Assembly: GCA_964632315.1 (NCBI GenBank)
Contig: CAZWEM010000001.1
Span: 96,001 to 160,000, forward strand
Origin: an uncultured archaeon
GTDB lineage: Archaea > Asgardarchaeota > Lokiarchaeia > Sigyniarchaeales > SOKP01
Direction of reading: 5' to 3'
DNA: 64,000 nt
Translations under genes and position numbers: made by a program
Part shown: positions 28,007 through 38,583 of the stretch, piece after piece
How positions within the stretch are numbered: position 1 is the first letter of the stretch
How the letters are laid out: every line of letters begins with the position of its first letter
The notes under the pieces: model-generated
Told to the model about the DNA's origin: nothing
The model's input: the letters and a program-made list of their open reading frames with translations, nothing else
The model's database searches: none

Positions 28007-30052
28007 ATGTCAGAACATAACTTACAAATCTGTCGATTTTGTCAAAGAAATATACAGTTGGCATACTATTGTGAAGATTGCGGAGTTAGTTGTTGTTCTG
28101 ATTGCCTTCATGAGGAAAAAAATGAATATTTTATATGCCAAGACTGTAATTCCAAAAATATTGAGGCATCTGATTCTGGAAAGAAAAAGTATTGTAAAGA
28201 ATGTGGTAGTGAAAACTTAACTCAATCAAGCCAATTACTAAAATCGTGCCCAAAATGTCATTCCACATCAATAATAAATATATATGAGAAGAAGGAAGAA
28301 TTAGAAAAGAGTTTCTTGAACTTAATTAAAAATGTACGAAATTTTTTAACTCCTTTCAGCGAATTAGTCAACTCAATGTATCAATTAAGGCAAATGATAA
28401 AAAATGCTAGAGCTCCCCCTATAAAATGCTTTCACTTTTCCAACCTTGAACCCGATTTGTTAGCTTTATTCAAATTACTTGTTTATGCTAAGGATAACTT
28501 CCATGAAAAGATTACAATTTTGTTCAATCATCTCTCACTGAATAAAGAATACTTTTTTGATATTTATACTCAACCTAACGCCAATGTAATAATCATCGAG
28601 GGAATATTAGAGAATCTAACTATAAATTATGAATCAATTCAAGAGTATGTTTCGAATAACGTTAAAACAATCAACTCAAGTTTAGATACAATAAAGAAAA
28701 ATCTCAAGTTTATTGATAAAATAACTTATTATTTTGATACATATAAAAAGTATTTGAATTTAGCAGAAGATGAAAAACCTATATATTCAATTCACGCTAA
28801 GCTAGCCAATGGCTTAAATACACATGATAAATACAAAAAAAGTAAAGGAGTACTTTTTATTACCAACTTGGATTTATCTTTTGTACAATTTAGTGGGAGA
28901 TTTAAAAAGAAAAAACAAGCGATTTTTAAAGCACCAGTAAATGATTTGATAAAAATTAGAGTACATGGAAAGGTTTTTAAGAAACTTTATATTGAATTTC
29001 CCTACGGGAGGTATGAATTCACTCTTCCTCCCAATTCTATAAATAAAGTATTAGATTACATTGTTTTAGCTCGAAATTTCGAAGATACAATAAAATTTGA
29101 TGAAGATGCTGCACAAAAATTAGATGAAATTTATATTGATTTAAACGAAATCACAGCATTTATTGAAGAGACTATAAATTCTTTTTTCAGTTTAAAATGT
29201 CAATACAATTCTGAGCATCAAAAGAGTGAACAACAACAGACAAATCAATATTTCCCGAATTTTTCAAATCCACAAATAAGAAATAGTCCTAATCCCGCTT
29301 ATATTAATACTTTTCAAAATGATATCAATAGGAATGCTTATAATCAAGAATTACCAAGAGCTTACTCAAGAGTGTATCCTCCTAACTCCTATATTTATCA
29401 ACCTGGGATAAGAGCAGATAACTCTGATAACTATTATCAATATGGAAATAGAGAACCATTATATAATAAATATGAAAGTAGATTTATCCCACAAACAATA
29501 TTTAATCCTCAAAGAATCCAAAATTATGAATCTTTAAGGTATTCTTCACCTTATAATATGCATTATCTCGATCCTGATGATAAAAATGTCTTAATGAAAA
29601 AATTAGAACAAGCAAATAAAAAGGGGCAATATGATCCTTATATGAGAAACCCCGCCGCTTATAGTCATGAATTGGAATCAAGTAATTTCCACGATAATAA
29701 ATATTATAATGATTTCTCTAAAAATCATCTGTCTGAGTTATTTGATCATGGTGAATTCCTAAATAATCCAATTAAGATGCCTAAACGCTATTCTAAACAA
29801 GTAAGAGAAAAAAGTAAAGAGATGAGTGAATTAGAAAAGGAGAGATATGGATTAGATGAAACCTTAAAAGCATTAGACACGAAATTCGATCAAGGCGTCA
29901 TTTCAGAAGTTGATTATTTTCGAACCTTCAAGAATCTACAAAAACAAATCTATGATATTGACCAAAAAATAGAATTACTGGGACAACAAATCGAAGATAT
30001 GAACTTTAAGCCCCATTTAAAAGATATTGAAGGAAAACGTTATTTTTCTTAA
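28007..30052 (+). CDS. Multidomain protein: B-box-like Zn fingers, coiled coil, PH/GRAM-like domain, N/Y/P/Q-rich linker, C-terminal steadiness-box-like helical hairpin
   Basis: Six CxxC pairs in the first ~85 aa; GVLFITNLDLSF PH/GRAM-like strand; GLDETLKALDTKFDQGVISEVDYFRTFKNLQKQIY resembles the Vps23/TSG101 steadiness box. Confidence 0.7.
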   Translation: MSEHNLQICRFCQRNIQLAYYCEDCGVSCCSDCLHEEKNEYFICQDCNSKNIEASDSGKKKYCKECGSENLTQSSQLLKSCPKCHSTSIINIYEKKEELEKSFLNLIKNVRNFLTPFSELVNSMYQLRQMIKNARAPPIKCFHFSNLEPDLLALFKLLVYAKDNFHEKITILFNHLSLNKEYFFDIYTQPNANVIIIEGILENLTINYESIQEYVSNNVKTINSSLDTIKKNLKFIDKITYYFDTYKKYLNLAEDEKPIYSIHAKLANGLNTHDKYKKSKGVLFITNLDLSFVQFSGRFKKKKQAIFKAPVNDLIKIRVHGKVFKKLYIEFPYGRYEFTLPPNSINKVLDYIVLARNFEDTIKFDEDAAQKLDEIYIDLNEITAFIEETINSFFSLKCQYNSEHQKSEQQQTNQYFPNFSNPQIRNSPNPAYINTFQNDINRNAYNQELPRAYSRVYPPNSYIYQPGIRADNSDNYYQYGNREPLYNKYESRFIPQTIFNPQRIQNYESLRYSSPYNMHYLDPDDKNVLMKKLEQANKKGQYDPYMRNPAAYSHELESSNFHDNKYYNDFSKNHLSELFDHGEFLNNPIKMPKRYSKQVREKSKEMSELEKERYGLDETLKALDTKFDQGVISEVDYFRTFKNLQKQIYDIDQKIELLGQQIEDMNFKPHLKDIEGKRYFS

Positions 30053-30088
30053 AATAGAAGATAAATTATGAAAAGGAATTAACTATAA

Positions 30089-30739
30089 TTAAGATCCTTC
30101 TAATTCCTTCCTCAACTTTTCGATTTCATCCTCCAATTTCGCTTTTGTACGAATTTCAGGTTCTTCTTCATCATCAAATTCAGAAATGTATTGTAAATCA
30201 TCTACAGGAACATCTGGTACTTGTCCACTCTGATCTAATAGCATTTCAGTTTCAAGTTGGTTAAGTTCATCTGTCACATCAATTGCTAGGTCAATTTCAG
30301 GATCTCCTGCTAATATCTCAGCAGATTCTTCTATCTCTGAAACGTAAGCCTCAGAATCTTCTGCTATTTCTGCTATTCTAGTGGGAGCTGCCTTTGTTGC
30401 AATTGTCTCTAATTCATCCCTAATTCCTCCCATTAAATCACCAGTCATCGAAATCATTTGTCCTTCTTCAATTGCTTCTATTTGCCTTTCAATTTTTGCT
30501 CGAATATTATTCGCTCTATCAACTTTTTGTTGATATTGTTTAAATTGAATCAAATAATTTTTAGCTCTCTCCCGCTCGCCTCTTTGTAAAGCAATTTTTG
30601 CGTTCTTTCGTGAAATTTCCGCTCTTTTATTATATGTTTTATTCGCTAATGCGATCTTCCGGATATGTGATTTTGCTTTTGTCACTAATTCTTCTTTTTC
30701 TTGGTCTTTTCGAGGGAATAATTTTTTTTTAAGTCCCAG
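30089..30739 (-). CDS. ESCRT-III Snf7-family protein (Vps20/32/60-like); probable CTG start at 30739
   Basis: Basic N-half (AKIALQRGERERAKNYL), acidic C-half, DELNQLE, MIM2-like VPDVP, terminal helix EDEIEKLRKEL; frame open up to the CTG with GGAG upstream. Confidence 0.85.
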   Translation of the reverse strand: MGLKKKLFPRKDQEKEELVTKAKSHIRKIALANKTYNKRAEISRKNAKIALQRGERERAKNYLIQFKQYQQKVDRANNIRAKIERQIEAIEEGQMISMTGDLMGGIRDELETIATKAAPTRIAEIAEDSEAYVSEIEESAEILAGDPEIDLAIDVTDELNQLETEMLLDQSGQVPDVPVDDLQYISEFDDEEEPEIRTKAKLEDEIEKLRKELEGS

Positions 30740-31994: not shown

Positions 31995-32453
31995 TTAATC
32001 CTCATATATAGCAAAAGTGCTTTTGCTCTCTTCTATTTTTACCTTAACTTGTTTGTCTTTATATTTTAGTTTTATTTGATCATGAATATATTTTGCAAGC
32101 AATTCGCTAGTTGTAGCTGATAATGGAAGAAACTTCACCTCTGCCAGGGGGAACATGTACCTCTTTCCACTTTTTGTTGAAATATTAACAATATCATCTG
32201 AAATTTGAATTTCTAAATCTGTAGATTTTTCAGGAATTAAAATGAAATGATCTAATGGTTTAACTATTGCTTTTAACTCCTTTTTCAACTCAATAAAGTC
32301 GACGACGAAAAAATTGGGATCTAATTTTGAGGATATTTCCACCGATACGTAATAGTTATGACCATGAAGCCTAGAACATTTTCGGGGTTCTTTAAGAAAA
32401 TGACAAGCACTAAACTTTATTATATTTGATTCTATCACGACTTTATGTTTCAT
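31995..32453 (-). CDS. queD: 6-carboxy-5,6,7,8-tetrahydropterin synthase
   Basis: FSACHF, CSRLHGHNY, DF..LK, LDH, TTSELLA. Confidence 0.9.
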   Translation of the reverse strand: MKHKVVIESNIIKFSACHFLKEPRKCSRLHGHNYYVSVEISSKLDPNFFVVDFIELKKELKAIVKPLDHFILIPEKSTDLEIQISDDIVNISTKSGKRYMFPLAEVKFLPLSATTSELLAKYIHDQIKLKYKDKQVKVKIEESKSTFAIYED

Positions 32454-32636
32454 GTTGCTTCATACAACAATAAGGTTTGTTATGAATTGATTTTAAAAAT
32501 TTATATATTTTGTCATTGAAATTCATAAATAGATTGAAAAAAATGAAGGTTAAGGTATTCTATATCTTATAATCATACTTTTTAAATGTCTAAGAATCAA
32601 CTTCTAAAATATAATTCACAAATTTAGGTATTCATT

Positions 32637-34217
32637 ATGAATTCGAAGAGAATTGCTGTTTTAGGCGCTAATGGATATTTAGGAATAAATCTAACAAAGA
32701 AAGCCATTTCTCAAGGTTTGGATGTCCATGCGATTGTAAGAAGGGAAGAGGTAGTAAAAGGGTTAGAATTATTAGGTGCGAATGTGAGTATTGTTAAGGG
32801 ATTTGAGATAGATTCTCTTAAAAAAATTTTTAATAATTCCGATGTTGTTTTTCACTTTGCTAATGTGGTATGTGGGACAAAAGAAATTTTTCAAAAAGTA
32901 AATGTAGAATCATTAAAGAACATTCTTGAGGCCTCAAGATTAGCTAACGTTTCAAGAATCATCTACCCATCGGGATTGGGGGTCGATAAATATAACAAAC
33001 TAGATTGGGCTAAGAACGAGTATTTTCGGACCAAATTTGAAGCAGAGAAGCTTATAAAAAATAACACGGTTCCTTATGTTATTTTCAGACCTTCTTACAT
33101 TTTGGGACCAAATGATGAATTGATACCAGAGATAATTAATCAGATCGTCGATGGAGAGGTTATTATTGCTGGAGATGGAGATGTTCCTATGAAACCCATC
33201 TATCTAGATGATGCTTTGTCTGCCTTTCTGTCAGCAGCTTTTAATGAAAATTCAAAAAATAAAAGCTATAATCTTGTTGGACCAAAAATAATAACCATGA
33301 ATAATTTAGTAGAAATGGTAATAATTAAACTAGCTGAAGTAGGATTTAATGTTCCGAGACCAAAAATTTCACATATTCCTTATGATCAAGCACCAGAAAA
33401 ACTCGATCTCTGTATTGAGATGGTTGATGTTATGCGTTGTAATTTAACTCCTGATGGAGATGAAACAGCAAAAGAATTAGGAATAAACTTGTCTCCCTTA
33501 CAAAAAGCGATCGAATCTGCAATATTAGCAGAAATTGGCACAAAATCTAATGACTATAATGATAAGAGGGCAATATTACTGCTTTCTGGGGGTATTGATT
33601 CTGCCACAAGTCTATATTGGGGAATCAAACAAGGATATGAGATTATAGCACTGTCTTTACTATATAAGTGGCGAGCAAAAAATGAAATATTAGCTGCTAG
33701 AATGCTTGCGAAAAAAACTAAGATTAAGCTAATAGAAACATCAATTACTTTCATTGAACAAGCCACTGATCTAAAAATGGAGGGCTATTCGATTCCTTCA
33801 GTGACGCAAGCTCCGCAAGGATTCATTCCTATGAAAAATTTAATATTTTATTCTTTAGCAGCTTATTTTGCGGAAGCTTATGGTTGTAAATTTATCATTG
33901 GAGGTCAGATTTCTACTGATACAAAAACTTTTCCAGATGCAACCCCTAATTTCTTTAATCTTCTCTCTAATTTGATTAATAGCTCAAAACATAATTCAGA
34001 TAAGAATAAGATAAAGATATTATTCCCCTTAATCGATTTAAATAAATCAAAAGTAGTCAAATTAGCAAAAGAAATGAAAGTACCTTTTGAGCATACTTGG
34101 AGTTGTTATGGTGATTTTACAAGACCTTGTAATAAATGCATACCTTGTATAAATAGAAAAAAAGCTTTTTTAGATAATAAATTAAAAGATCCAGACTTTA
34201 AAATAATTGAGAAATAA
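32637..34217 (+). CDS. queC: Fusion of an NAD(P)-dependent atypical SDR (NDUFA9/epimerase-like) and 7-cyano-7-deazaguanine synthase QueC
   Basis: N-half GANGYLG, YFRTK, FRPSYILGP; C-half LLSGGIDS, IPMKNLIF, FPDA, TWSCY..PCNKCIPC..R; one uninterrupted frame. Confidence 0.85.
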   Translation: MNSKRIAVLGANGYLGINLTKKAISQGLDVHAIVRREEVVKGLELLGANVSIVKGFEIDSLKKIFNNSDVVFHFANVVCGTKEIFQKVNVESLKNILEASRLANVSRIIYPSGLGVDKYNKLDWAKNEYFRTKFEAEKLIKNNTVPYVIFRPSYILGPNDELIPEIINQIVDGEVIIAGDGDVPMKPIYLDDALSAFLSAAFNENSKNKSYNLVGPKIITMNNLVEMVIIKLAEVGFNVPRPKISHIPYDQAPEKLDLCIEMVDVMRCNLTPDGDETAKELGINLSPLQKAIESAILAEIGTKSNDYNDKRAILLLSGGIDSATSLYWGIKQGYEIIALSLLYKWRAKNEILAARMLAKKTKIKLIETSITFIEQATDLKMEGYSIPSVTQAPQGFIPMKNLIFYSLAAYFAEAYGCKFIIGGQISTDTKTFPDATPNFFNLLSNLINSSKHNSDKNKIKILFPLIDLNKSKVVKLAKEMKVPFEHTWSCYGDFTRPCNKCIPCINRKKAFLDNKLKDPDFKIIEK

Positions 34218-37611: not shown

Positions 37612-38583
37612 ATGTCATCTCTCCCCCAAGATATGCGTGATAAAATGATGAGCATCCTCAAGATTGAGGAGGACAAAACTGATTTGGAGAATTTAGCAGT
37701 TTTATCACGAGTAGGTATGAAAGTTGCATCTGCTACTACTTCAGAATTAGACGCTGATGCGACCTCAGCTTCAAGTACGGCTTTAATTGATTTGGGATTA
37801 AGACTGAGTGAAGCGACTGCACATGGGGCGTTAATTGAAATTATACTCCATAATTCTTTTGGCTACAGTATTTTACAAGCGATAAATGATGATTTTATTG
37901 TATTTGGGGGATTAAAGAATGTTTTTAGAATAGGATATTATTTAGGATATTTAAAAGAATTAGCTAAAAAATTAAACCGCTTAATTTCTGGCGATCAAAT
38001 CACAGAGATGACGCTCTCATTAGATGCTGCTGAAAAAGCTAAATTGGGCATCCAAGATGATTCAGAGGATATGACACCGGTTAAACCCTCCTTAGAACAA
38101 GACAAGGCTGCTCTGGATGATTTGTTAGGTTTTTTAGACGATTGGGAAAAACAAGGTACCGATGAAAAAGAACTTGAGTCAGTAGCAGATAATAATATTG
38201 TTTCAATCCCAAAATCACGTAGCATCGAACACGAAAGACAATTAATTCGCGATCAAGCTTCATCTCAAGCTGGGACAGAATCCTCAGCTATAAGCTCCCA
38301 ATTTAAAGTTTATGATGATGAGATTCCCCCCCTTCCCTTAGACGATTACACTCCTATGGAAATTGAGGAGGATGCTTCAGTTCAAGAACCAGAAATCGTA
38401 CAACAACCAGTTCCCCCTTTATCTCAAGCTGAATTACCAGCTTTAGACGAATTAACGCCTCCAGATTTTGAATCCGAAATGTTTGAATCAGCATCTGAAT
38501 ACGAAACTGAATTTGTTCTAGATAAAGAATCAGAAGCTTTTGAATCAATTCTTAAAGATCTTGGTTGGGATGAAGAAGAGTGA
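37612..38583 (+). CDS. Roadblock/LC7 (MglB-like) domain with long acidic disordered tail
   Basis: LAVLSRVGMKVAS, SASSTALIDLG.R, G.L.EIIL..G, IGYYL..LK; ~195-aa D/E/P-rich C-terminus. Confidence 0.8.
   Translation: MSSLPQDMRDKMMSILKIEEDKTDLENLAVLSRVGMKVASATTSELDADATSASSTALIDLGLRLSEATAHGALIEIILHNSFGYSILQAINDDFIVFGGLKNVFRIGYYLGYLKELAKKLNRLISGDQITEMTLSLDAAEKAKLGIQDDSEDMTPVKPSLEQDKAALDDLLGFLDDWEKQGTDEKELESVADNNIVSIPKSRSIEHERQLIRDQASSQAGTESSAISSQFKVYDDEIPPLPLDDYTPMEIEEDASVQEPEIVQQPVPPLSQAELPALDELTPPDFESEMFESASEYETEFVLDKESEAFESILKDLGWDEEE

Follow-up and report, generated by a model that had tools for sequence, protein, structure and literature searches.

Analysis of the genome of an uncultured lokiarchaeon revealed a conserved module, consisting of a short-chain dehydrogenase/reductase (SDR) fused to a domain of the QueC family that belongs to a separate clade (QueC*), together with a functional-looking QueD and the archaeosine machinery, while QueE is absent. 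The fusion, found in the gap left by QueE, may represent a second route, so far undescribed, by which the 7-deazaguanine ring is made or recycled. For the construction of this ring, the basis of queuosine, archaeosine, DNA modifications in phages and antibiotics of the toyocamycin type, no enzyme other than QueE has been described (PMC5699537). If an ordinary oxidoreductase has indeed taken the place of QueE, its chemistry would be new to enzymology and would need no iron-sulfur cluster. No description of the SDR-QueC* module was found in a literature search that took in a minority of subscription journals, and a 2026 survey of the QueC family mentions neither the QueC* clade nor the SDR fusion (PMC13329287). 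An earlier note on this DNA is borne out insofar as the fusion is real and conserved, belongs with 7-deazaguanine or pterin metabolism and seems to be undescribed.

The window, i.e., the whole analysed stretch of 64,000 nucleotides, is located on contig C1 of a 4.45 Mb genome, 99.5% complete and 8.6% contaminated. The features of the module are listed in Table 1.

Table 1. Features of the SDR-QueC* module and the adjoining queD (positions in the window)
Feature	Position	Strand	Characteristics
SDR-QueC fusion ORF	32637-34217	+	526 aa, single frame, zero internal stops
SDR domain, aa 1-298	32637..33530	+	NDUFA9-like atypical/extended fold, presumably NADP(H)-type
Variable in-frame linker, aa 299-309	33531..33563	+	Where the separate genes of some relatives overlap or abut
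QueC-family domain of distinct clade (QueC*)	33564..34217	+	Sole QueC of the genome
queD (PTPS-I type, CxxxHGH)	31995-32453	-	Sole PTPS of the genome
Divergent intergenic region, 183 bp	32454..32636		Between head-to-head queD and fusion

The single SDR-QueC frame reported earlier is confirmed by the ORF itself, by the Pfam domains Epimerase/NAD_binding_10 (aa 6-213) and QueC (aa 311-513, E 9.5e-50) and by homologs. All motifs quoted for it were found in the sequence, and the head-to-head position of queD and the absence of queE, queF, tgt and arcS from the window were verified. Homologs of the fusion form 188 clusters, the best 120 of which are full-length fusions, 49-85% identical to the query and aligned over 93-100% of its length. 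Their taxon labels are mostly Promethearchaeota or Lokiarchaeota; the NCBI label Hodarchaeota on some fusions appears to come from the submitters. In some relatives, SDR and queC are two adjoining genes, which overlap or abut at the position matching the linker. Since at least 120 relatives are fused over the full length and others keep the two genes adjacent, an assembly artefact or chance joining is ruled out, and the fusion is not confined to one assembly with unlinked genes in relatives. The AlphaFold model contains two well-folded domains joined by a low-confidence linker (aa 301-310), and dN/dS is near 0.2 in both domains.

In the intergenic region, a TATA-like A/T element (~32498-32533) is conserved across an alignment of 10 loci from two genera and is probably the promoter of queD; a sigma-70 promoter scan was uninformative, the host being an archaeon. 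The neighbours of the fusion in the window are genes of DHQ synthase II, GH57 and Snf7; in genus g2, the neighbours are other housekeeping genes. A 681-aa zinc-finger-rich protein without a Pfam match (28007-30685) faces an Snf7/ESCRT-III gene, and the product of 37612-38583 is roadblock-like and ends in an acidic tail; these neighbours are of Asgard type and syntenic across genus g1. Searches detected no plasmid match and no viral ortholog of the SDR (best viral match 25-28% identity); viral matches to QueC reach only 29-38% identity.

Archaeosine synthesis is represented in the genome by MptA, QueD, aTGT, ArcS and RaSEA. MptA (245.6 against a cut-off of 220), TgtA (431.9 against 350) and RaSEA (339.3 against 212) pass the NCBIfam thresholds; ArcS scores 330 against 440, yet contains the signature motif and is encoded directly beside RaSEA. 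The genes tgt and arcS are located on contigs C20 and C16, respectively, and a gene of the QueT importer is also present. The fusion, as the sole QueC, adjoins the sole QueD, which scores 70.8, below the TIGR03367 cut-off of 89.25, and gives a close alignment to the QueDs encoded in complete operons of Loki genomes. In fusion-linked queD, the CxxxHGH motif, the zinc-binding His and the catalytic Glu are invariant in 49 of 49 copies, and the median dN/dS of 0.14 indicates purifying selection.

QueE is absent from the whole genome. The standard model of the B. subtilis type misses the Loki-type QueE, and a specific model was therefore built from Asgard loci, with which true QueEs score 91-285 bits in leave-one-out trials; the best match in the source genome, at 57.5 bits, is an NrdG2 activase. 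That QueE was merely overlooked is rejected, the Asgard model recovering it in sister genera and not in the source genome. In Asgard QueE (L056:7822-8682, L057, L058, L064 and L068), a spacer of 11-13 residues separates the first two radical-SAM cysteines; because of this long spacer and scores far below the NCBIfam cut-offs, standard annotation misses these proteins. In the Asgard families f9 and f20, several short hairpin-forming inserts with stops or frameshifts break up queE in its 5' part (L308:6376-7235, L309:6090-6985, L310:6135-6985); the insert positions are conserved, the remainder of the gene is intact and adjoins queD, and the inserts look like small archaeal mRNA introns. Databases label the fusion proteins plainly as QueC, which hides the pathway gap.

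Genes for QueF and for a preQ1-using TGT are likewise absent from the whole genome, where the only TGT-family matches are aTGT and ArcS. Archaea do not need QueF. The earlier note had seen in the SDR joined to QueC a possible reductase of preQ0 or a related intermediate. An SDR that acts downstream of QueC on preQ0 or ADG, giving preQ1 or a new deazapurine, would fit the NADP(H)-type domain and the absence of QueF. Such a substitute for QueF is highly improbable: aTGT, ArcS and RaSEA use preQ0, QueC would be left without a source of CDG, the gap lies upstream of QueC, and related SDRs adjoin queD in Acidobacteria. ArcS and RaSEA are described as acting on preQ0 in tRNA (PMC11298593).

The SDR domain has the features of the superfamily, namely, the GxxGxxG motif (GANGYLG, 10-16, with G10, G13 and G16), the N-S-Y-K tetrad and a Rossmann fold with a C-terminal lobe. 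YFRTK (129-133) and RPS (151-153) were also found, and strand 2 is followed by R35-R36, which suggests a preference for NADP(H). The catalytic tetrad N89-S112-Y129-K133 is intact and retained in 120 of 120 close homologs; in a separate count, N89, S112 and K133 are invariant and Y129 is present in at least 90%. The subfamily is marked by the motifs SGLGV, NxYFxSK, FRPSYILG, DEL and ExxDVMxC and occurs in Asgard archaea, Bathyarchaeia, Nitrososphaerota, Marsarchaeota and Acidobacteria. The radical-SAM three-Cys motif and the fold of QueE were not found in the fusion, the fold being that of an SDR; this lowers the likelihood that the protein is a QueE, and does not lower the likelihood that it fills the step of QueE.

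PDB and fold searches with the fusion returned only generic SDRs, QueC and Cap9; the solved structures nearest to the SDR are atypical SDRs of the NDUFA9 type (TM about 0.83, ~20% identity). NDUFA9-type proteins are generally regarded as non-catalytic. Together with members of the wider SDR subfamily that are encoded far from que genes, this is consistent with incidental or supportive coupling, in which the SDR would be a pterin redox housekeeper or structural partner and an unrecognised enzyme, e.g., one of the 44 radical-SAM proteins of the genome, would perform the QueE step. Such coupling is quite improbable given the nearly invariant tetrad and the pairing of SDR with queC*, which persists across Asgard and Bathyarchaeia and includes at least two fusion events, a second, distant lineage having fused SDR and QueC* separately. 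Two Nitrososphaerota homologs of the SDR (L163, L169) are located between a cobalamin cluster and metK.

Among 251 Asgard genomes surveyed, 31 contain an ortholog of the SDR; it is part of a fusion in 29 of them, from two genera, and a gene of its own in the other two. QueE is present in one of the 31, as compared with 62 of 68 genomes with other QueCs, and in this single genome it is located on a mobile cassette with ParB, ligase and bacterial-type FolE. A Loki queD-queE-folE-queC cluster with ParB and DNA ligase (L063, G104:C7) is probably a provirus or a mobile DNA-modification cassette. Because the genomes are kin (a two-genus clade and genus g10), the mutual exclusion of SDR and QueE amounts to about two events, not 31; Bathyarchaeia add nothing to it, since QueE is rare there anyway (3 of 121 genomes, against QueC in 38 and QueD in 11). 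The sister genera of the same family contain ordinary queC, queD and queE, and their queD is orthologous to the fusion-linked gene. Of the 29 fusion genomes, 28 have QueD, and none of the 11 genus-mates without the fusion does. In two of these genus-mates, of genus g2 (L305, L306), only the C-terminal half of QueC* is left at the locus and queD and SDR are deleted; both genomes have QueT.

In 28 of the 30 rows of the tree, the SDR clade is a neighbour of queC or fused to it, and the unfused orthologs are located directly upstream of queC*, often overlapping it. In Acidobacteria, the sister SDR clade belongs to amidohydrolase-SDR-queD operons, represented by the Vicinamibacteria loci L147, L148, L151, L222, L230 and L237, with a gene of a DAO-family FAD oxidoreductase in between in L222. 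The SDR is thus tied to both enzymes flanking the missing step, since SDRs adjoin queC* (after it) and, in Acidobacteria, queD (before it); such linkage is the usual mark of non-orthologous displacement.

Gene content and linkage suggest, at slightly less than even confidence, that the SDR supplies the substrate of QueC in the stead of QueE. SDR and QueC* would together be an alternative source of preQ0, a module that took over from the ancestral queE and queC in two genera of Lokiarchaeia. MptA would produce dihydroneopterin triphosphate, and QueD would presumably convert it to CPH4; the SDR, acting through its Ser-Tyr-Lys site with NADP(H) as cofactor and either by itself or with a helper, would convert CPH4, or its oxidised form 6-carboxy-dihydropterin, to CDG with loss of ammonia. 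QueC* would then form ADG and preQ0 at the expense of ATP, and aTGT, ArcS and RaSEA would complete archaeosine in tRNA; lineages with the module and without QueD would be fed by imported carboxypterin.

The weakest step of this proposal is the ring contraction. A polar route via dihydropterin, in which the ring nitrogen is lost in an NADPH-dependent step, can be balanced on paper and is speculative. The conversion of CPH4 to CDG is redox-neutral, whereas the SDR resembles an NADPH reductase, which counts against the proposal, and we know of no precedent for a radical-free contraction of a pterin to 7-deazaguanine. That an NADP(H)-dependent SDR performs this contraction without radical-SAM chemistry, giving Asgard archaea a second de novo route to preQ0, is somewhat unlikely. 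The only enzyme for which the conversion of CPH4 to CDG has been described is QueE, a radical-SAM enzyme (PMC5699537). Further points against the SDR in the place of QueE are the small number of events (about two), SDR genomes without QueD, retained importers, canonical QueC coexisting with the module (G283, L180), the presence of a related SDR, QueC* and QueE together in G286, and the lysine K400 of the QueC* domain.

Six genomes, four of Bathyarchaeia and two of g10 Loki, contain the SDR without QueD or QueE, five of them with QueC*. In these five (four Bathyarchaeia and one Loki), aTGT is also present; the second g10 genome, 76% complete, contains the SDR only. Genes of the importers QueT or YhhQ were found in 23 of 29 fusion genomes, in 16 of 19 genomes without QueC and in one of seven canonical relatives in the family. 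Both the five genomes and the importers, including YhhQ in G165, fit salvage, in which an imported 7-deazaguanine leftover (preQ1, 7-formyl or 7-hydroxymethyl base) would be oxidised by the SDR towards CDG and converted by QueC* to preQ0 for archaeosine, QueD being kept for other reasons. In the same direction point the SDR-queC* pair of L180, located one gene away from a queT-queC pair, and the operons of queT and queC, common in Bathyarchaeia, that occur where QueD and QueE are lacking. Salvage is nevertheless rather unlikely, as it leaves unexplained the queD gene, which is head-to-head with the fusion, lost together with it and under purifying selection, and the SDR-queD operons of Acidobacteria; moreover, importer genes almost never adjoin the module, and the NADP(H) signature would favour reduction. 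Prototrophic E. coli also keeps the YhhQ importer (PMC5372724).

In Bathyarchaeia (L260-L274 and L180), queT precedes a canonical-looking queC in 14 of the loci analysed, from genomes in which neither QueD nor QueE was detected. On gene order, this layout implies that CDG or ADG is taken up and then finished by QueC, a form of salvage of which no description was found.

The QueC* domain contains SGGIDS (317-322), PMKN (398-401), FPDA (432-435) and four zinc-site cysteines (490, 498, 501 and 504), as well as Y343xxRxxxE350, IPxK400N, D428, F432-P-D434, K470 and C490-Y491. The zinc site, C490-x7-C498-x2-C501-x2-C504, is invariant in 120 of 120 relatives, and its first spacer, x7, is one residue below the published x8. 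Equivalents of Tyr35, Tyr189 and Lys165 of canonical QueC are present as Y343 (120/120), Y491 (115/120) and K470 (120/120). The canonical YxQxHxxE motif is replaced in the clade by YxxRPxxE. At the arginine position of VPxRN, K400 was found here and R in 101 of 120 relatives; at the YPDC position, F432 is present in 118 of 120, D434 is invariant and the cysteine is lost, giving FPD(A/T/S). In E. coli QueC, the substitution Y131F, equivalent to F432, keeps partial activity, and replacement of R99, the position of the lysine, by Ala is inactivating (PMC13329287).

QueC* forms its own clade (support 100/97) with the signatures YxxRPxxE, IPxRN and GGHxxxDxxxFPD, and the fusion scores 140.8, just under the TIGR00364 cut-off of 150.3. 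The sister clade, weakly supported (82/83), shares FPD and has also lost QxH, and its members are located in complete queE-mptA-queD-queC clusters of Asgard archaea; because of this, the motif changes alone are no proof of a new function. Of the earlier claim of altered QueC motifs, the changes themselves stand, and they are less special than suggested: K400 is a minority state, F432 is the family norm, and FPD and the loss of QxH occur in QueCs of complete operons. A large group of GGH-type QueC proteins (P0341-P0392) includes some labelled Nitrososphaerales or Nitrosocaldus.

The base-reading residues of Cap9 (Y115, D117) and of B. subtilis QueC (Y129, D131) map to F432 and D434, and reading of a guanine face by this pair would fit CDG and, equally, a 6-carboxypterin. 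The latter belongs to the fallback of the earlier note, a new pterin: QueC* would adenylate the 6-carboxyl of CPH4 or 6-carboxypterin to give an amide, nitrile or conjugate, the SDR would set the redox state of the pterin or reduce the acyl-adenylate, and archaeosine would be made from imported preQ0. Besides the guanine-like face of pterins, this is favoured by the coexistence of canonical QueC, the retained importers, the loss of QxH and of the YPDC cysteine, and QueC*-type genes adjoining queD without queE elsewhere. The latter include a queC*-queD pair in one bacterium and the basal QueC* of Bathyarchaeia in a queD-folE-queC* operon, G380 having no QueE. The new pterin is unlikely, given that 79 of 91 genomes of the order, the source genome among them, have MptD, through which 6-hydroxymethylpterin is normally made, and that QueCs encoded in complete preQ0 operons show these motif changes too. 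To our knowledge, no cyano-, amido- or conjugate pterin of this kind is known. A bypass of FolB/MptD to hydroxymethylpterin was also considered and is weakened by the near-universal MptD, which makes a FolB bypass unneeded. Both salvage and the new pterin, like the displacement of QueE, predict something undescribed, the former a step that feeds salvaged material into preQ0, the latter the pterin itself. Among the loci L270:5609-7967, L298:7079-9422 and L299, a classical SDR (adh_short) converges on the queD-folE-queC* operon of basal QueC*, and another QueC* has a classical SDR head-to-head.

Among known systems, the fusion shares with the canonical FolE/MptA-QueD-QueE-QueC pathway (B. subtilis QueC, PDB 3BL5; cluster 1 of PMC13329287) the PP-loop SGGxDS, the zinc site, the equivalents of Y35, Y189 and K165, the base-reading Asp, the linked queD and the archaeosine enzymes in the genome. 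It differs in its N-terminal SDR, in YxxRPxxE and FPD(A/T/S), in forming its own clade and in the genomic context, where QueD is present and QueE is not. As in GAT-QueC of the archaeal and phage archaeosine route (PMC5699537), QueC of an archaeon carries an N-terminal catalytic domain; here, however, the partner is an SDR instead of a class II glutamine amidotransferase, and because ArcS and RaSEA are present, the fusion is not the amidine-forming step. The nitrile reductase QueF is likewise an NADPH-type redox enzyme associated with que genes, but the SDR is of the Rossmann type and not a T-fold, no TGT of the genome uses preQ1, and the gap lies upstream.

NDUFA9-like SDRs, the family of the 39-kDa subunit of complex I, are closest in both sequence and fold and share the basic residue of NADP(H) type; unlike them, the fusion SDR keeps the full N-S-Y-K tetrad and belongs to its own subfamily tied to queC and queD. 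Cap9 and QatC, the QueC-family protein ligases of phage defence, also combine a QueC fold with a dedicated partner, and QueC* shares with Cap9 a His before the (Y/F)xD motif. In contrast to these ligases, the fusion has a housekeeping neighbourhood without CD-NTase, Cap10 or qat genes, and a variable SDR N-terminus without a conserved Gly; QatC has Thr in place of Y/D. Rather than being filed as canonical QueC, QueE, QueF, GAT-QueC or Cap9/QatC, the module would work like a branch of preQ0 supply.
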